DNA of 63,418 nucleotides, filler included, from Collodictyon triciliatum (taxonomy: Eukaryota), in NCBI GenBank assembly GCA_043381765.1. It is 24 parts of 24 records of this genome, joined end to end, with 100 filler letters (N's around TTAATTAATTAA, not from the genome) between each part and the next. Parts side by side here need not be neighbours in the genome. Positions count along the whole stretch, not along the records: positions 60,849 to 63,418 come from JBHJMP010008652.1; 23 more parts are not named here. One strand, given 5' to 3'. Every line of letters starts with the position of its first letter. The first letter of the stretch is position 1. Below are positions 2,687 through 63,418 of the stretch, piece by piece. The notes below the pieces were generated by a model. The model saw only the letters and a list, made by a program, of their open reading frames with translations, was not told the DNA's origin and ran no database searches. Position numbers and translations under genes: made by a program.

Positions 2687-2894
2687 AGATGAAAATATCA
2701 AAATCTTATAAGGATATTTTATCTGAAAGACTGTTTGGATAAAGTTAAGGAAAACACCAAATAAAAAAGACCTGAAACAAGAAAAAAGAAGAAAAAAGAA
2801 GAAAAAAGAAGAAAAAAGAAGAAAAAAGAAGAAAAAAGAAGAAAAAAGAAGAAAAAAGAAGAAAAAAGAAGAAAAAAAGAAGAAAATTGATTAC

Positions 2895-5125
<2,231 letters not shown>

Positions 5126-15954: not shown

Positions 15955-16092
15955 GTTACCTTTTTTTTTTTTTTTTTTTTATCAACTACATGNNNNNNNN
16001 NNNNNNNNNNNNNNNNNNNNNNNNNNNNNNNNNNNNTTAATTAATTAANNNNNNNNNNNNNNNNNNNNNNNNNNNNNNNNNNNNNNNNNNNN

Positions 16093-18996
16093 TATCATTC
16101 CAAGTGCCTTGTGGACATTCAATACATGATATGTTTCCATATGAGCCGGAGTTTGAGTTGAATGTGCCTTTTGGACAAGCGTGGCATGATTTTGAGTCTT
16201 TTTTGATTCCTTCTCTTTGATAGTATCCTGATAAGCATAAACTGCATGATGCACTTCTTTCTGAGCTGTAGCTTCCATTTGGACATGAAGTACATGATGA
16301 TTGATTGAATGAGCCAGTTTTGTTGTTGAATGTACCAGCTGGACATGATGTGCATGATGCTTGACCATCTCTTTCATTCCAAGTACCTTGTGGACATTTG
16401 ATGCATGATTTATTTCCATATGAGCCAGAGTTCGAGTTGTATGTGCCTTGTGGACAAGCATAGCATGATTCCGAGTCTTTTATTATTTCTTCTTTTTGAT
16501 TGAATCCTGATGAGCATAAGCTGCATGAAGAGCTTCTTTCTGAGCTGTAGGTTCCATTTGGACATTCAATGCATGATGATTGGTTGAATGATCCAGTTTT
16601 GTTGTTGAATGTACCAGCTGGACATGATGTGCATGACGCTTGACCATCTCTTTCATTCCAAGTACCTTGTGGACATTCAATACATGATTTGTTTCCATAT
16701 GAGCCGGAGTTTGAGTTGAATGTGCCTTTTGGACAAGCGTGGCATGATTTGGAGTCTTTTGAGATGCCTTCTTTTTGATAGAATCCTGGCGAGCATAATG
16801 TGCATGAAGAGCTTCTTTCTGAGCTGTAGCTTCCATTTGAACATGAAATGCATGATGATAATTCAAATGAGCCAGTTTTATTGTTGAATGTACCAGCTGT
16901 ACAAGATGTGCATGATGCCTGACCATCTCTATCATTCCAAGTACCTTGTGGACATTCAATACACGATATGTTTCCATATGAGCCGGAGTTTGAGTTGAAT
17001 TTGCCTTTTGGACAAAAATGACATGATTGTGAGTCTTTTGTGATGCCTTCTTTTTGATAGAATCCTGATAAGCATAAGCTGCATGATGCGCTTCTTTCTG
17101 AGCTGTAGCTTCCATTCGGACATGAAATGCATGATGATTGATTGAATGAACTAGTTTGATTGTTGAATGCACCAGCTGCACATGATTTGCACGATGCTTG
17201 ACCGCCTTTACCATTCCAAGTGCCTTGTGGACATTCAATGCATGATTTGTTGCCATATGAGCCAGAGTTTGAGTTGAATGTGCCTTCTGGACAAGCGCAG
17301 CATGATTTTGAGTCTCTTGTGACGTCTTCTTTTTGATAGAATCCTGGTGGGCATAAGCTGCATGATGAGCTTCCAGCTGAATTGTAACTTCCATTCGGAC
17401 ATGAAATACATGATGACTCATTGAATGAGCCAGTTTTATTGTTGAATGTACCAGCTGGACACGGTGTGCATGATACTTGACCACCTATATTATTCCAAGT
17501 ACCTTGTGGACATTCAATACACGATTTGTTGCCATATGAGCCGTAGTTTGAGTTGAATGAGCCTTTTGGACAAGCATAGCATGAGCTTGAGTCTTTTATG
17601 ATATTTTCTTGCTGATAGAATCCTGATAAACATAGACTGCATGACGAGCTTCCAGCTGAGCTGTAGCTTCCATTTGGACATGAAATACATGATGATACGT
17701 TATATGAGCCAGTTTTGTCGTTGAATGTCCCAGCTAGACATGATGTGCACGATGCTTGACCCTCTCTGTCATTCCAAGTACCTAGTGGACACTCAATGCA
17801 TGATTTGTTTCCATATGAGCCAGAGTTTGAGTTGAATGTGCCTTCTGGACAAGCATAGCATGATTTTGAGTCTTTTATGATTTCTTCTTTTTGGTAGAAT
17901 CCTGATAAACATAAGCTACAAGATGAGCTTCCAGCTGAGCTGTAGCTTCCATTTGGACATGAAATACATGATGATACGTCCAATGAGCCAGTTTTATTGT
18001 TGAATGTACCAGCTGGACACGATGTGCACGATGCTTGGCCATCTCTATCATTCCAAGTACCTTGCGGACATTCAATACATGATGAGTTCCCATATGAGCC
18101 GGAGTTTGAATTGAATGTGCCTTTTGGACAAGCATAACATGATTTTGAGTCTTTTATTACTCCCTCTTTTTGATAGAATCCAGATGAGCATGAAAAACAT
18201 GATGCGCTTCTTTCTGAGCTGTAGCTTCCGTTTGGACATGAAATGCATGATGATTGATTGAATGAGCCAGTTTTATTGTTGAATGTACCGGCTGGACATG
18301 ATGTGCATGATGATTGACCATCTCTATCATTCCAAGTACCTTGTGGACATTCAATGCATGATTTATTTCCATATGAGCCGGAGTTTGAGTTGAATGTGCC
18401 TTTTGGACAAGCATAGCATGAGCTTGAGTCTTTTAAGATTACTTCTTTTTGATAATATCCTGATAAGCATAAGCTGCATGAAGAGCTTCTTTCTGAGCTG
18501 TAGCTTCCATTTTGACATGAAATGCATGATGATTGATTGAATGAGCCAGTTTTATTGTTGAATGTACCGGCTGGACATGATGTGCATGATGATTGACCAT
18601 CTCTATCATTCCAAGTACCTTGTGGACATTCAATACATGATTTGTTTCCATATGAGCCAGAATTTGAGTTGAATGTGCCTTCTGGACAAGCGTAGCATGA
18701 GCTTGAGAATATTTTATTATACCTTCTTCTTGATAGAATCCAGATAAGCATAAGCTGCATGAAGAGCTTCTTTCTGAGCTGTAGCTTCCATTTTGACATG
18801 AAATGCATGATGATTGATTGAATGAGCCAGTTTTATTGTTGAATGTACCGGCTGGACATGATGTGCATGATGATTGACCATCTCTATCATTCCAAGTACC
18901 TTGTGGACATTCAATACATGATTTGTTTCCATATGAGCCAGAATTTGAGTTGAATGTGCCTTCTGGACAAGCGTAGCATGAGCTTGAGTCTTTTAT
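16093..18996 (-). CDS. Cys-rich CXXC (ephrin-receptor-like/GCC2-GCC3-type) repeat protein, probably extracellular; internal fragment
   Basis: Intronless frame of about 10.4 tandem 279-bp (93-aa) units, each with five CXXC-P.G.[FYW] modules and several N-glycosylation sequons. There is a 2-bp frameshift near 18705-18730. Confidence 0.88.
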
Positions 18997-29811: not shown

Positions 29812-32388
29812 CGGGTCCCCAGAAAAATTAACTGCTGAAGATATTGCCGATATAATAAACGTGACAGCTTGTCTCTGACATTGAGGTACGATGTTTTCAA
29901 TTCATCTTTTTCATTTTATTAATACGAAAAAAATGCGACACTAGTTTTCCACTGATTTTTTCTGCAAAAGGCTAGGCGATGTCTTGTTCGAAATGATTTG
30001 GTAGAAGATGAATTAAACCATACCTTGAAATATATATCAACACCGTCCTTTAAAAGTACTTCCTGTGCTGTTTCAGCAAGTCTATCGACAGCCATCGTAA
30101 CCGTGTAATTGGGCTGGATGAATGTCATTTGGAAATTCATGTGATTTTCTGTAGTGGACTTATAGGGCTATGGGAGATAGAAATAAGAAAGTGTGGTATC
30201 AGCAACCCTTCCATTATTGATATTAGTCTAAAGTGTAATACAAACAAATTAAACTACATCCAAAAGCGAATTAGTAAAGCACATAAACAAGTAAATAAAT
30301 GATAAATCATCCAACGATATTGGCTTTGATTTCGTGCTTGATTCTTACCATTATGAGGAATTCCTTCAAAAATTGTCTATTATATCCTCCCCACTTTCCA
30401 AGAATTGAAAAAACTTGCTGGTGTCGGTGGTGATGTTCTGGACGAAGGTGTTTCCATAGTGCAGTCATTAGCTCAGCTTGGACTGGCTGGATGTATGGTT
30501 CCAGATACTTGCCCACCATATTATCTATGAAAAGCTCCAAGGTACGGAGGCCTTGGAGAGCCTAATTTGCGTATGTAAGATAGAGTAAAAACATATTTTA
30601 TTCTTCTATATATTTACTGAGTAATACCAATAACGTGTATATTGAATGGAAAAAAAGGAATCTTTTGTTTTTCTTCGGTAGCGATTGTGGAATTACCAAA
30701 TCATTATCTGACTGTAGAGCTGCAACGAGCGGTTTCATTATATACTGGAGGTATGGAAGCAAATTGCTCAATCGCACGGGGACAGTAAGACACAGCTCAA
30801 CAATCAAGTGCTTCAGTGCGGGTTGTTGAACAGTCATATGGAGTCGATTGAGGCTCTCCAAGAAAGCTAAAAATAACATCATATTAAATGAGTACTTATA
30901 TAGTTCAATATGTGATAAGAGTTGGCTCGTGAAAGGTTGTATATGAAAAAAAAAAATACTTGGCAACAGAGGAATGAACTCTCTCAATAGGTTGTCAAAT
31001 TTACAACTTCCTGTGCTCCTAAATAGTGATCTTAAAAGTTGAAAATAATTGGTCGGGTCCTGTGGTAAGTTTAACTGTTTCAGTGGCACATTCTTCCTCT
31101 AGAATTCCTTCAGAAGAAGGAGAAATCTTCGACTAAATTCGCCAATATATAAAGCAAATTGAGGTGTATCAACCTTAACTTCTGTGCTATGGGTCAAACA
31201 TCCGATAATGATTGTATTCAAGTGCTGTTGGAGCATTGACTCATTCTCAGAGTAAAGTCCAACAGAACCAAATACTAACTTAAAAAGACGTAGAACTATT
31301 CCTGACTGAATCTTATCTGAAGTATCAAGAAGCCTATTGCACAAGTAAAGTGACATACCGTTAAATATAAATATATCAATTCAATTTTTCCAAGATTTCT
31401 TTTTAAAAATTCGTGTAAAAGAAAAAGGAAACAGAAAAAGAAACTTACTTCAAATTATCGACCAAATAGTTAAGCAAGATTTCGACAAGGCTCTTTGAGA
31501 CTGCTTGACTAGAAAAAAGATGTTGTGGAACGAGCAGCATAGTTTGATTCTCGAGCAAGATATTAAATAGGTAACCGATATGTTGATTCATTATGTCTTG
31601 AAATGTCCTAACATCAACTGCTGTGTAGATACCAGAGAATTGATCAAGCATCTAAGATTTGATTTCGAAAATATTTGCCCCAATAAGAAAGAATATGGGT
31701 AAAGTGTAAAATCAAACCATGCTATAACTCAAACATAATAAAAAAAATTTTAAAAAAAAAGCATAAATCGAATTCATCGTTTTTTTCCCATTTCATAATT
31801 ATTAATAATAGCAACCTCCTTCTCTTCACTTTGAAGCGTTGTTTTATCATTCAAAGTGTAAAGGCTCAAACACTTCAAACCATGCACAAAAAGGCGAGAT
31901 AAAATCGAGCTCTCCTCGGCTGACAAGGGTTGCTTTGTGTTACCAGAGAGACTTGCGGGCTTTGAGATGGCATGAGTATAAAAAAGTGTAATTGTGAATA
32001 TGAAAAAAAATATAAAATCCACTTATGTGATACATGAATAATTCATCAAAGGGTTAAATGTGAAACTCACATTAGAAGCATTACTGCAGAGTCCTATAGT
32101 TACAGACTTCAATCCCCAAATTGAAGATCTCAATAGCGACCGACATTCTATTTTGTATATAGTTGCGAGTTATTCAGTAGTCTAAAATAAGAGGTAAATT
32201 CTCAGCTTTTTAAATGAAGGTTTAAATAGACTTATTTCTTATTAATTATTGTGAAAAAGGAAACCTTAAATCATACAATAATACAAATATGATATGAGTA
32301 ATGAAGACAAATGAACAAAAAGAAATACCGCGTAGGGTTTCGGTGGGAGGCTCGGATATAACACCGTAGCGAATGTTCTCAACACCAA
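29812..32388 (-). CDS. TRRAP: TRRAP/Tra1 (PIKK-family SAGA/NuA4 subunit), N-terminal HEAT region, internal fragment
   Basis: LRLFKLVFGSV, NYFQLLRSLFRS, LIVELCLTVPVRLSNLLPYLQYIMKPLVAAL, and GLRTLELFIDN...ILGKWGGYNRQFL. Confidence 0.94.
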
Positions 32389-58076: not shown

Positions 58077-58201
58077 TNNNNNNNNNNNNNNNNNNNNNNN
58101 NNNNNNNNNNNNNNNNNNNNNTTAATTAATTAANNNNNNNNNNNNNNNNNNNNNNNNNNNNNNNNNNNNNNNNNNNNAAAGCGAGGTATACACCATACCA
58201 A

Positions 58202-58307
<106 letters not shown>

Positions 58308-58310
58308 TAC

Positions 58311-60182
58311 CTCTTCATTTAGCTCATCAATTGTCCCAGTGTAGATAAACTCGATCAATTTTACAAAGATTTCAGGTGTTACTTCGTCTGTCACAGTGAT
58401 ATCTCTCATTTTCGGCTCACCTTTTCTCCCAAGTTGGAACCATAAATTAAATTGAGGACACCGGGCCGATAAAACAAACTTTTCCATAATATTAGGACCG
58501 AGATTAGCATTAATCAAAAAGAGAGGGAAAACTGGATGGACATTCAATTGCTCTTGTACAAAAAAAAAAAAAAAAGTTATTGTACCAAGTGTATGAAAAT
58601 ATTAGCGAAAACCTGATGTGCATATACAATGGTTGTCCCTATAGCAAATTTCACGTCTGCAAAGGCCCTTACATTCAGTATTTTTCTGAAGTCATTGTAG
58701 TGGGATGATTCTCTAACCTCTGATATATGCAAATTATATAAAAAAATTAATAGATGAAGCATAAATTTTTGTGGATTTTTTTTTCGTCATTAGACTGTTC
58801 CAGGTTACTGTGTGCAAGAAAAATTATCATGACAATAGTGAATGAAATATCACTTGGAAGAAGATCTCTCAATTCAGATAAAAGAGATGAAGACGACGTC
58901 GATGGCGCTTGAGAAGGGTCCAAAGGCCTCAGTATATTTTTCATAGGATTATTGTAGACTGTAAGAACCTGTAATGAAGTTATACAGCCCAAAGTAGGAG
59001 GAAGGAAGCTGAGTTCATTTTGATTCAGGTTGAGAACACGAAGCATAGGGATATTCCCGATGGTAGCTGGAATTGAAATCAGAGCGTTCGATTCGAGGTC
59101 CAGAATACTGAGGCTCTTGAGGCGATGCCAGAGGTCAGGTAGATAAGCCAACTGGTTCTTTTTTAAGTCTAACTCACAGAGATTAGACAAAAGACAAAAC
59201 TCGTCAGGTAAATGCTGGAGCTTATTCTCTGATAAGTCAAAGTTCTTTAGATTCCGTAGTTCCCCGATTTCAGCTGATAGATAGGCGAGCCGATTTGCAG
59301 ACGCATTGAAGACTCGAAGATTCTTGAGGTTAGATATTGAAATGGGTAACGATACTATCTCATTTGACTGAATAAAAAGCTCATGCAGCTTGGTCAGTTT
59401 GCCAAAGTCTTCGGGGAGAGCGCTCAGTCTGTTATGGTCAAGGGACAGTTTCTGGAGCTTTTGGAGGAGGCAAAAAGTGACCGGCAGTTTTTCAAGTTCA
59501 TTCTTGCTCAAAGAAAGAAAAATCAGCGACGACATATGGCCAAACTCATCGGGAAGGGTGATCAATTTGTTATCATCAAGATGAAGTTTCTGGACATCGG
59601 AAAGAAACTGGATTGACGCTGGGAGTCGGACTAGAAGATTACGCTCGAAATAGACTTCCTTGAGGGCAGATAACTGCTGAATGTCTACAGGGATTTCGCT
59701 GATCTGATTGCATGCAAAGTTCACCTTGGATAGGGTCACGATCGTAAATAGATATTCAGGGAGTGTCGAAATTTGATTTTCAGCAAGCCTATGCGATTGT
59801 AAAAAGGTTTTTTTTTAAAAAAAAAGAAAAAGAAAAAGAACTGGTAAATTAAGTGCACTCGCGTATATGTAAATATATCAGCCATGCATGTCTAGAAAGG
59901 ACAAGGGTTTAAGTTCAAACAGAAAAAAATCCAACTGAAGTATCGCATTAGGGGGTGAAGGGGTAGGTTTATTATATCATTGGGGAATGCGGCGCAAAGT
60001 TTTGGAAGAAGGAATAATTTTACGTACCAGAGAACAGAAAGGCGGGTCATCCGAGCAACTTCTGGTGGGATATGGGAAATACGGTTGTTTTGAAGAAATA
60101 TTTTGATCACGTGTGACGGAAGATTTGACGGAAAATGCGTCAGATTCTGGTTCTTTAGCTTCAAATCTTCGCTGTCTCCCAT
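58311..60182 (-). CDS. LRR (SHOC2/RSU1-type 23-aa repeats) plus BTB/POZ domain protein, 3'-partial
   Basis: About 14 LxxLxLxxNxLxxLP repeats, followed by BTB exons FADVKFAIGTTIVYAHQ|FVLSARCPQF...VTPEIFVKLIEFIYTG. Confidence 0.88.
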
Positions 60183-60848
60183 GACCGTATCTTTTTGATG
60201 TTGTGTCCTAATGCATTGATTACCAGGGAAGGAGTGTGTTTAGAGTTTGTTGCGGTCGCACAAAAGAGTTGTTGAAATTGCACGGAAAGCTTCCTTTGGT
60301 CAGATATTGCAATAAAAGGTGGCGGGTGAGTGTCAGGATAAATATGTCAATAGACTCTCGCCATTGCCGATCGTTTTTCTTTTTTGAAAGAAACACCGTT
60401 GTTGTTTGAAAATCAAGAGCTGGAAAGTGATAAAAAAAAACTGCTTAAATCTTTGAATCTTCTAAAAACCAGACTATTCACACTAGAAACGAAAAGTATA
60501 TCCGAATAAGGAGAGCCTCGTCTTAGTCAAGGCATCAGCAGCTTTGAGAATATAGTTTAGAAAAAAAGAAAAAGAAAAAGAAAAAGAAAAAGAAAAAGAA
60601 AAAGAAAAAGAAAAAGAAAAAGAAAAAGAAAACAAAAAGAAAAAGAAAAAGAAAAAGGAAAAGGAAATAGAAAAAAGAAATAAAAGAATGAAAAAAGAAA
60701 GAAAAAGAAAAAGGAAATAGAAAAAAGAAAAAAAAAGAAATAGAAAAANNNNNNNNNNNNNNNNNNNNNNNNNNNNNNNNNNNNNNNNNNNNTTAATTAA
60801 TTAANNNNNNNNNNNNNNNNNNNNNNNNNNNNNNNNNNNNNNNNNNNN

Positions 60849-63288
60849 GCTGGATATTTTCATGTCTGCCCTGGGTGAAAATCATCCGAATGTTGTGGCC
60901 TGCTATGAAATGATTGGAGACATCAGCCATGATTTGAAAGAGTATCTCTTTATTAATTATTATTACAATAATGAATTTACTCACATTATCCTAGCTTCAA
61001 GGGTGCTTTGGAGGCGTATACGAAGACGCTGGATATTCGCATGAGAACACTGGGCGAAAGACATACTGATTATGCTACTTCACTTGAGAATGTTGGCCGA
61101 ACAAACTTTGAGCTTCAAAGGTTTTTCTTTCTATTATTTTAAAAAATCGAATAATATAATAACTAATGTGCATGCATCTAGTTCTGCTATATGTGTTTAT
61201 TGCTTCCAGAAAGCAGCTGTTATCAGAAAGGAGACAAATACTATTATGCCACTGAAAGACACAAATCAAATTGACAACATTATCCGCCTCATGAAAGACA
61301 AGAAAGAGCATGAAGCCGTCGTTCAGCTTTACAGAACGCTGATTCATTTATTCAGCAACCTTTACTCCATGGATTATCTTGGGATATGGAACAGCTGTGA
61401 GGAAATCGACAAGACTTACAAGGAACTGAAGCAACATAACGAAGCAGTGGCATTCTGGACTGAGATGAGAGACAGATTTGCTGATAAACTGGGATGGATT
61501 CACACCAGAACATTAAACTCGTGCGAATACTTGTCCGTCCATTCAAAAGAAATCGGAATCAACAAAGAGCTTGTCGAGTTTACAAGAGTCAAGGAATTCA
61601 TCAGTGAAACTCTTGATGATGCAAAGATGGATGAGGAATGGAATCGTGAACAAATAATTCTATTTTTATTCAGCATTGCCTACATGTCAAAGACTGATGA
61701 GAGCAAATCAAAGGCTGCATCTGATGCAATCACACTTTTGAATTTGATGAATGTTTCTTTTGGTGGAATGGATTTATCAAACATCAAAATTCCACATGCA
61801 AATCTCAGTAACTCAATCTTTGAAGGTGCAAACTTAACTGGTGCCAACTTGGATGATGTTGATTTCACGAATTCGATGCTTGGTGATTGTGTTTTTGATA
61901 ATGCGAATATGAATAATGTAAAATTCGGAATTCCTCATGACAAATTGGAAGGTCACACAAGTGCAGTCATTAGTGTTTGCTCTATTCAAGGACCGAATGG
62001 TGAAAATTGGCTGGCATCTGGAAGAGTTGATAATACAATACGTATTTGGGATACAACCACAGGAAGCCAAATCAAAACATTAGAAGGACATACAAATGTT
62101 GTCAGGAGTGTTTGCAGTATTCAAGGACCGAATGGTGAAAATTGGCTGGCTTCTGGAAGTCTTGATAAAACAATACGTCTTTGGGATGTAGCCTCAGGAA
62201 ACCAAATCAATATATTAGAAGGTCATACAGAACCTGTCTATAGTGTTTGCAGTATTCAAGGACCGAATGGTGAAAAGTGGTTGGCTTCTGGAAGTGGTGA
62301 TAATACAATAAGTATTTGGGATGTAGCCTCAGGAAACCAAATCAATATATTAGAAGGTCATACAGAACCTGTCGATAGTGTTTGCAGTTTTCAAGGACCG
62401 AATGGTGAAAAGTGGCTGGCTTCTGGAAGTAGTGATTATACAATACGTATTTGGGATGTAGCCACAGGAAATTATATCAAAATATTAGAAGGTCATACAA
62501 ATTGGGTCAGTAGTGTTTGCAGTATTCAAGGACCGAATAGTGAAAATTGGTTGGCTTCTGGAAGTCGTGATAATGCAATACGTATTTGGGATGTAGCCAC
62601 AGGAAACCAAATCAAAACATTAAAAGGGCATACAAGTGGTGTCAGTAGTGTTTACAGTCTTCAAGTACCGAATGGTGAAAATTGGCTGGCTTCTGGAAGT
62701 TATGATGGTACAATACGTATTTGGGATATAGCCTCAGGAAACCAAATCAAAACATTAGATGGACACACATTACCTGTCAGATGTGTTTGCAGTATTCCAG
62801 TACCGAATGGTGAAAGTTGGCTGGCTTCTGGAAGTGAAGATAAAACTATACGTATTTGGGATGTAGCCTCAGGAAGTCAAACACACAGTCTGCAAAAATC
62901 AGAAGTTACCTACACTGAAGGAAAATACCTCGTCAGGAAAGAAAAGCCAGACAAAGTCATCGCAGTATTCAACAGAACAAGTGACGCGATGAGCATGATT
63001 GACACCAACAGAATCCAAGATGCAAAGACAGTCCAGATTATCGGCCCAAGAAAGCTGCAAGGTGGAAGCATCCAAATCAGAAATGTCACGGGATTGAGTC
63101 AATACAACAAATCCCTCCTTCTTTCTATCGGTGCTGCTTCCTGTGATGCGGACTTTGTTGCCTATTGTGAGCAGGGCAAGTTCACCAAGTTCCAGGCTCA
63201 AATGATTGCTGAGTGCTATGAGAATGGATGGGGTGTTGAGAAGGACACCGAGAAAGCAGCTGAGTGGAGACAGAAAGCCACAGCTTAA
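60849..63288 (+). CDS. TPR - helical - pentapeptide repeat - 7xWD40 - SEL1-like protein, 5'-partial
   Basis: KLC-type TPR exons (LGENHPNVVACY; LGERHTDYATSLENVG; introns at about 60941-60994 and 61121-61181), pentapeptide repeats ANLSN/ANLTG/ANLDD, seven 45-aa WD40 repeats at 61951-62895, and a C-terminal AECYENGWGVEKDTEKAAEW. Confidence 0.9.
61951..62895 (+). repeat. Seven near-identical 135-bp WD40-coding tandem repeats
   Basis: GH codons start at 61951, 62086, 62221, 62356, 62491, 62626 and 62761. The seventh unit diverges at its end. Confidence 0.95.
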
Positions 63289-63418
63289 CAATGTAAGTAG
63301 TATAGTAAATGCATATTAATATATGTTCGTTAACTATATTCATTTTAGATGGAGAGATTCTCTGGGTTTTTTTCAAGCAGACCTCCGCTTTTTTCCCACA
63401 AGGACGCTCCATGAAATC

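Follow-up and report, generated by a model that had tools for sequence, protein, structure and literature searches.

The last contig of a 63,418-base stretch of Collodictyon triciliatum DNA (assembly GCA_043381765.1; the whole stretch analysed, 24 contigs joined end to end, is called the window below) holds the 3′ part, put at two-thirds, of a gene, here called the WD40 gene, in which seven mutually similar WD40 units vary at the same five codons, predicted to lie on the top face of a beta-propeller. The coding part retained on this contig consists of two short TPR exons and one exon of 2.1 kb. We give a probability of roughly 60% to the reading that this part of the gene encodes the sensing half of a STAND/NLR-type protein whose repeats diversify in the manner of HET-E; a NACHT domain, an effector and any immune role of the gene are inferred.

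The original prediction, made from the sequence alone, described the array as seven nearly identical units of 135 bp. Seven in-frame units of this length are present (Tandem Repeats Finder: 61944-62875, period 135, 6.9 copies, 86% matches, no indels, score 1276), but, cut in frame from 61942, they share pairwise DNA identities of 0.76-0.92 and are similar rather than nearly identical. Their pairwise amino-acid identity is 0.62-0.82 (mean 0.72), and 0.70-0.90 (mean 0.79) when the five hypervariable codons are left out. The variable residues that had been singled out at the start read in the seven units exactly as listed, namely SAVI, NVVR, EPVY, EPVD, NWVS, SGVS and LPVR after GHT and, around SG..D., RVDN, SLDK, SGDN, SSDY, SRDN, SYDG and SEDK; unit codons 7, 8, 10, 29 and 31 each carry four to seven different residues among the seven units. 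A count of differences across the repeats, akin to the dN/dS check proposed beforehand, shows the proportion of nonsynonymous differences (pN) above that of synonymous differences (pS) at these five codons (0.65/0.26 in the pooled count), versus 0.10/0.13 at the other 40. Of the 58 differences from the unit consensus, 24 fall in the same five columns; when the differences were placed at random 100,000 times, a single trial reached this level. The synonymous divergence among units is low (pS 0.13), and the units must therefore be of recent common ancestry, by duplication or conversion, beyond what constraint at the protein level would account for. The units at the two edges of the array are the most divergent (mean identity to the others 0.82 and 0.79, versus 0.84-0.86 for the inner units), which fits a homogenised array interior. 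Mutagenesis of the diversity-generating-retroelement type was considered as a source of the variation and rejected: the changes fall at consensus G, A, T and C (15, 11, 10 and 3, respectively) and not at adenines alone, and the contig carries no reverse transcriptase.

The positions of the variable codons were placed on an AlphaFold2 model of the 701-residue product of the last exon (P0001), built from 61 aligned sequences that are mostly generic WD40 proteins. The propeller is confidently modelled (residues 251-560, predicted local distance difference test [pLDDT] of 90-99), with four strands per unit that run, in unit numbering, from 9 to 16 (a), 22 to 28 (b), 33 to 37 (c) and from 43 into the following unit (d). 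The mapping, also suggested in advance, puts the variable codons at the d-a loop and the start of strand a and at the b-c turn: codons 7 and 8 close the d-a loop and lead directly into strand a, codon 10 comes second in that strand, codons 8/10 flank Val9, and codons 29/31 flank Asp30 of the b-c turn. Paoletti et al. (2007; PMC1805685) describe two selected codon pairs in HNWD repeats, both assigned to the top face: 7/9, on either side of conserved residue 8 in the d-a loop, and 25/27, on either side of conserved residue 26 in the b-c turn. By the modelled secondary structure and by this analogy, the hypervariable codons of the WD40 gene would occupy the same face, with which WD40 proteins bind their partners, and the proposed HET-E/HNWD pattern stands as far as variable pairs beside a conserved Val and a conserved Asp are concerned.

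The WD40 gene resembles the Podospora anserina HNWD/NWD genes (HET-E and HET-D as well as HET-R) in further respects: its units are mutually similar at the DNA level, differences between natural variants concentrate at the variable codons, and, as judged by homology, the WD40 repeats would form the C-terminal arm of a NACHT-type protein. It differs from them in that its units have 45 residues instead of 42, the a-b loop carrying a conserved insert (GPNGE.W), in the lower identity of these units (mean 0.72 versus about 85%), and in the possession of TPRs, a pentapeptide segment and a Sel1-like tail. Moreover, the only complete relative that was found, the Diphylleia rotans protein P0020, carries DUF4062 and not HET, and the host of the window gene is a non-fungal, uncultured freshwater eukaryote.

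Variation between environmental samples follows the same distribution. In a word index, 14 DNA runs from seven studies (freshwater, sediment and aquaculture metagenomes) hold 0.32-0.50 of the sampled words, and one of these studies may be where the sequence itself came from. The gene is about 97-99% identical in freshwater and sediment metagenomes of three studies. Samples were compared through metagenome contigs of three DNA runs (X1, X2 and X3) belonging to three studies; gaps in the cover of the stretch in X1, X2 and the RNA run X15 carry no meaning as absence. Pieces of the flanks differ by 1-3% between samples (for example 7/734, 18/1246 and 4/425 letters), and pieces of the array by 7-10% (24/347, 27/258 and 11/136 letters). 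A second form, P0018, comprises 392 residues from an 1851-nt Logan contig and is 98% identical to the window product over the linker that precedes the pentapeptide repeats; ahead of the array it differs in 4 of 253 residues and, within the WD units, in 9 of 89 ordinary and 7 of 13 hypervariable positions (Fisher p = 6e-4 and 1.4e-6), the hypervariable changes being distributed as 0/5 in unit 1, 4/5 in unit 2 and 3/3 in the partial unit 3. Read from these sequences, the variation between forms is what one would expect if a recognition surface were diversifying, with paralogy and allelism indistinguishable here. The number and order of the repeats may vary as well: an 1851-nt contig of X2 departs from unit 2 and resumes, still in register, within units 5-6 (a skip of 412, with 7 letters between), and a 155-nt contig of X1 joins a unit-7-like body to a unit-5-like start (405 nt back, that is three units), although short-read contigs over a repeat, or paralogues, could produce both these 405-nt in-register joints and the excess of differences in the array. 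The 58 contigs of X3 fall into three identity levels (16 at ≥99%, 20 at 95-99% and 22 at 90-95%), which suggests several strains or copies.

Breaks and joints of this kind in other assemblies, together with the three identity levels in X3, also bear on whether the seven-unit array is itself a short-read mosaic of strains or paralogues, in which case the number and order of units and part of the hypervariability would not come from one molecule. The contigs of only about 2.57 kb, the finding of this DNA in metagenomes and an exact repeat of up to 59 nt within the array are in line with such a mosaic. We nevertheless regard it as very unlikely. Over the 945 nt of the array the frame is unbroken and free of indels, and all units are distinct, so that reads longer than 59 nt can order them; an independent contig (P0018) repeats the first two and a half units and leaves unit 1 the same at its five hypervariable positions; and the location of the differences, at the d-a loop and the b-c turn, is not one that an artefact of assembly would produce.

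On its sequence, the WD40 gene is a eukaryotic gene, predicted to be spliced, whose 5′ end is cut by the start of the contig (Table 1). In the standard code its frame is open from the first bases of the 2570-nt contig; an alternative genetic code was considered and is not needed, as this frame is open and the TAA stop matches the ends of the homologues. Both introns are skipped in the tblastn alignment with P0020, whose residues from 1384 onward align at 61213 onward. Intron 2 varies in length in other samples, with insertions of 4+14 nt or of 3 nt at 61153/61155, and one metagenome contig has 172 different letters in place of 61123-61267. In the word index the words occur in small proportion in six RNA runs. 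Contigs of one of these runs (X15) cover portions of the array and of the tail, and one of them, 220 nt long, is without differences; none spans an intron, and DNA carry-over is possible. JGI metagenome contigs were scanned twice, first with the protein by itself and then with an alignment of two sequences, and yielded neither a relative nor a longer contig of the gene.

This gene structure also bears on a bacterial origin, namely that a contaminating bacterium contributed a NACHT-pentapeptide-WD40 NLR gene. The closest solved sequences in the PDB do include a bacterial protein, the WD40 domain of PkwA (4.7e-64, after the designed Tako8 at 6.7e-66). With the designed Tako8/Ika8 and with Thermomonospora PkwA the window array shares a consensus-like WD40 propeller of 7 or 8 blades with very regular units; as the former are designed and the latter is a bacterial kinase-linked protein, the match is uninformative on function. 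We consider a bacterial origin extremely improbable, because the two GT..AG introns are backed by homology and by indels confined to introns, the G+C content around the gene (34-35%) lies within the range of the other window parts (24-45%), and the closest full-length relatives are eukaryotic transcripts. Tra1 and BTB gene pieces on neighbouring contigs point the same way, although the contigs need not share one organism.

The upstream architecture has to be read from relatives. An exhaustive HMMER search with residues 1-256 returned 8969 proteins at E ≤0.001, only 6 of which reach ≤1e-30. Both the linker and the pentapeptide part are matched by four (P0019, P0020, P0021 and the 77-residue fragment P0046), and many weaker relatives share a single stretch, made up of the pre-pentapeptide motif and the pentapeptide repeats only. 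Local phmmer among 164 of the proteins finds the linker in P0018, P0019, P0020/P0164, P0021, P0046 and P0062, and the tail in P0019, P0020/P0164, P0021 and P0147; P0019, P0020, P0021, P0062 and P0147 are proteins of the Diphylleia rotans transcriptome (EukProt). P0089, tried as a further linker relative, was rejected as a pentapeptide-only protein with no linker match in local phmmer. The search for longer proteins with residues 1-256 gave pentapeptide-only matches covering 18-34% of the query, and the search with residues 240-701 among shorter proteins gave generic WD40 proteins of at most 51% identity and no close fragments. P0020, of 2619 aa, appears complete. Its first 1142 residues contain CH (4.7e-11), DUF4062 (8.1e-11) and a GIGKSS Walker A motif, and its order is CH, DUF4062, NACHT-like P-loop, TPR_12 (3.5e-40), linker, pentapeptide repeats, 19 WD units and Sel1-like tail.

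It had been supposed that TPRs occupy the place of NACHT in the window gene. This is not supported: the frame is open from the contig start and the TPR exons correspond to residues 1303-1373 of P0020, downstream of its DUF4062 and NACHT-like P-loop. The appearance arises because the gene is truncated by the contig start, and the order of domains is not rearranged. Nor is the Sel1-like segment an odd addition, being the conserved end of the family (P0019, P0020, P0021, P0147). The proposal that the flanks are of the NACHT-pentapeptide-WD40 type was borne out, as NACHT lies upstream of the pentapeptide module in 4/4 distant relatives tested (P0036, 30.9 bits; P0087, 39.4; P0147, 35.5; P0119, 26.0; cut-off 26.7), and a member from Entomortierella beljakovae agrees with the suggested link to Mortierella-type proteins. 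Named members of this class come from Hexamita inflata, E. beljakovae and D. rotans, and others from metagenomes; they share with the window gene the pre-pentapeptide motif, the pentapeptide repeats and the WD40 repeats, which follow NACHT there, but most of them lack the insertion of TPR_12 and linker, and P0147 has the tail without TPR. From these comparisons, one branch of the class has the TPRs and the linker inserted between NACHT and the pentapeptide module, and the missing 5′ part of the WD40 gene most likely encodes a NACHT-like P-loop NTPase behind an effector-type domain. In P0020 this domain is DUF4062, which a preprint (10.64898/2026.05.01.722283) reports to be a TIR-like NADase adjoining NACHT in TEP1, NWD1, NWD2 and NPHP3. 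Two relatives are unusual in other ways. P0019 carries the linker module twice (residues 212-315 and 367-533) and has 22 WD units broken by long low-complexity inserts, and P0106 (E. beljakovae, 2924 aa) has Walker A motifs at residues 633 and 1642; either two NACHT-pentapeptide-WD40 units may have fused in tandem here or the gene model may be wrongly joined.

The same relatives lend themselves to a different interpretation, in which the WD40 gene encodes a housekeeping scaffold of the NPHP3/NWD1/TEP1 type that underwent recent internal duplication, its blades differing by contacting different parts of one fixed partner with no sensing of non-self. P0020 is like the animal STAND proteins NPHP3, NWD1/NWD2 and TEP1 in having DUF4062 followed by a NACHT-like P-loop, with KLC-type TPR_12 as in NPHP3 and WD40 as in NWD1/TEP1; its DUF4062-NACHT-TPR_12 layout is that of nephrocystin-3-like proteins, and P0021 matches TPR_NPHP3 at 2.6e-25. 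In the Diphylleia relatives, positions 7, 8, 10 and 29 are also among the most variable, with no homogenised backbone, and variability of the top face is ordinary for WD40. The pN/pS ratio outside the five codons, about 0.8, is also in keeping with a scaffold. We think this interpretation unlikely, since a fixed surface does not predict a pS as low as 0.13 among units while pN clearly exceeds pS at five codons, P0018 has changed over half of its hypervariable residues and few before the array, and the array differs more between samples than do the flanks. The window gene is further unlike NPHP3, NWD1 and TEP1 in combining TPR and WD40 with a pentapeptide beta-helix between them, in its Sel1-like tail, in the N-terminal CH domain seen in P0020, and in a WD array that is homogenised and variable at once.

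Several observations weigh against reading the gene part as the sensor half of a diversifying STAND/NLR-type protein. The window contains no start codon, NACHT or effector of the gene. In P0020 the NACHT (25.2 bits, cut-off 26.7), nSTAND1 (24.4) and NPHP3_N (23.0) matches all fall just under the Pfam cut-offs, and the upstream assignment is drawn from relatives whose identity in the linker and pentapeptide part is no more than 34-41%. High internal repeat conservation means more than 85% amino-acid identity in Dyrka et al. (2014; PMC4986451), and the unit means of 0.72, or 0.79 without the hypervariable codons, stay below this level, so that this half of the likeness to HNWD/HET-E did not survive. 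The Diphylleia WD units have diverged along their full length; homogenisation of the array is therefore particular to the window gene and not a feature of the whole family. Within the window array the other 34 of the 58 consensus differences are scattered, and variable nucleotide columns outside the hypervariable codons number 14/9/12 at codon positions 1/2/3, with no excess at third positions. The backbone of the units is without visibly strong purifying selection, and the contrast between the five codons and the rest is real but not clean. The sample is small, with seven units and one partial second form, and the short-read contigs that span the repeat may be chimeric or paralogous. Finally, animal DUF4062-NACHT proteins (NPHP3, NWD1) are not known as classical immune receptors.

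Profile searches, proposed at the outset for the identification of the domains, placed WD40 and the pentapeptide repeats above their cut-offs, but TPR_12 and Sel1 below. PF00400 matches seven stretches (2.3e-69), and PF00805 reaches 2.2e-10 (40.3 bits, cut-off 20.2), although the pentapeptide segment has a pLDDT of about 30 and its fold is without a confident model. TPR_12 is matched by exon 2 at E 6.2e-06 (26.7 bits, cut-off 30.1), with about 1.5 repeats on the contig, and both TPR exons align with the last TPR_12 region of P0020. The linker is modelled as nine helices with block pLDDT of about 60-88; its nearest Protein Atlas clusters are TPR families, at scores of up to 0.84 that count as leads only, and it is likely degenerate TPR-like. 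The Sel1 match (PF08238) in the tail has an E-value of 2.5e-05 (25.1 bits, cut-off 30.7). The first half of the tail, residues 564-628, is without a confident model; a separate model of the tail from five sequences has a mean pLDDT of 66, and its final 50 residues reach block means of 83-92. All seven best Foldseek matches of the tail are Sel1-repeat proteins, at E 0.036-0.17 and none at ≤0.001, and the comparison of the tail with Protein Atlas gave no usable match.

Table 1. Coordinates of the WD40 gene and of other features along the window.
Feature	Position	Strand	Basis or remark
WD40 gene contig	60849-63418		last contig of the window, 2570 nt
Exon 1, partial, KLC-type TPR helix	60850..60941	+	weak TPR_12 match, E 0.082; P0020 residues 1303-1332 on 60856-60945, 53% identity (tblastn)
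Intron 1, 53 nt, GT..AG	60942..60994	+	frame restored; skipped by homologue alignment
Exon 2, TPR_12-type repeat	60995..61120	+	26.7 bits; P0020 residues 1331-1373 on 60993-61121, 58% identity
Intron 2, 61 nt, GT..AG	61121..61181	+	splice sites; frame restored; length changes in other samples
Last exon, 2.1 kb, 701-residue product P0001	61182..63285	+	open frame, homologue alignment
All-helical linker	61182..61740	+	P0001 residues 1-186; common to P0019, P0020, P0021, P0062, P0046
Conserved pre-pentapeptide motif SKSKAASDAITLLN	~61690-61740	+	sequence
Pentapeptide repeats	61741..61926	+	PF00805 residues 187-223; Pentapeptide_4 to residue 248
Seven WD40 units	61942..62886	+	135-bp units; one 7-bladed propeller
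C-terminal tail	62887..63285	+	about four Sel1-like helices at ~63100-63285; kept in P0019, P0020, P0021, P0147
TAA stop	63286..63288	+	homologues terminate at most a few residues away
ABC transporter membrane domain exons	2748-3143	-	8.5e-12
Open frame across whole 2904-nt contig	16094-18832	-	cysteine-rich repeat protein
Tra1/TRRAP-like exons	30601-31098	-	Tra1_central 7e-32
BTB/POZ exon	58179-58601	-	1.3e-07; enters perfect (AAT)35 microsatellite at 58202-58307
Leucine-rich-repeat protein	58750-59814 and 59892-60182	-	LRR_8 9.6e-32; contig preceding the WD40 gene contig
(AAAAAG)n microsatellite, ~31 copies	60561-60748		end of a contig

The remainder of the window consists of other contigs. 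Twenty-two of the 24 contigs measure 2570-2586 nt and the other two 1522 and 2904 nt; their joins are runs of N around TTAATTAATTAA, of which there are 23 (at 2631, 5315, ... 60793) versus 0.08 expected by chance. As the window is made of separate contigs, genes that adjoin in it are not genomic neighbours and, given that the DNA of the WD40 gene contig is found in metagenomes, the contigs need not share one organism. In tblastn with five relatives only the WD40 gene contig was matched. Eukaryotic gene pieces on the other contigs include Tra1, BTB, an ABC transporter, a leucine-rich-repeat (LRR) protein and a protein of Ephrin_rec_like repeats, and the Tra1/TRRAP-like and ABC transporter exons mark the assembly as eukaryotic. 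The 923-residue product of 16040-18808 has 19 Ephrin_rec_like stretches (1.2e-141) plus NCD3G and TNFR-like matches, and looks like part of a giant repeat surface protein with both ends cut. The LRR protein, being on a different contig, is unrelated to the WD40 gene; a further LRR-looking frame upstream of it suggests an intron. In the BTB/POZ frame the (AAT)35 microsatellite would read as poly-Tyr, and it is probably an intron or a contig-end artefact; the (AAAAAG)n microsatellite probably explains the break of the assembly at that contig end.

If the WD40 gene does encode the sensor half of a STAND/NLR-type protein, a mechanism can be outlined from the STAND paradigm (APAF-1, NWD1 and TEP1, as treated in the preprint 10.64898/2026.05.01.722283) and from HET-E. 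The variable top face of the propeller would bind a partner that itself varies, be it foreign or a self molecule that is polymorphic; binding would release the autoinhibition of the NTPase, the protein would oligomerise, and the N-terminal effector would then act. Unequal crossing-over or gene conversion among the units, combined with diversifying selection, would generate new binding specificities, as in Podospora HET-E/NWD. The fuller proposal, that a free-living, non-fungal freshwater unicellular eukaryote keeps a TIR-like(DUF4062)-NACHT-TPR-pentapeptide-WD40-Sel1 receptor and that shuffling of the repeats, together with positive selection, remodels its ligand face, is tentative, and we hold it to be possible yet rather doubtful as a whole.

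Among fungi, NLR-type proteins with repeat arms that diversify fast are well enough known to be documented, and bacterial examples are reported in a preprint. In animals and plants high internal repeat conservation is reported as rare, accounting for 0.4-1.2% of repeats in Dyrka et al. (2014; PMC4986451). Judged by titles and the beginnings of abstracts, the literature found on high internal conservation in NLR/NACHT proteins deals with fungi, plants, animals (sponges, marine multicellular organisms) and bacteria, and none of it with protists; no published description of the present gene family was found in the literature on NACHT with Diphylleia rotans, on NACHT with pentapeptide plus WD40 (judged by titles and abstracts for eukaryotic proteins of this layout), or on protist NLRs. 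A protist example with a different chain of domains, here TPR, pentapeptide repeats, WD40 and a tail resembling Sel1, which a TIR-like domain and NACHT probably precede, would extend receptor diversity based on repeats to unicellular eukaryotes. Should this prove true, a HET-E-style recognition repertoire, directed at self/non-self or against parasites, would exist in protists, and its allelic diversity could be read directly from environmental metagenomes, the WD40 gene providing a widespread and concrete locus at which to sample it.

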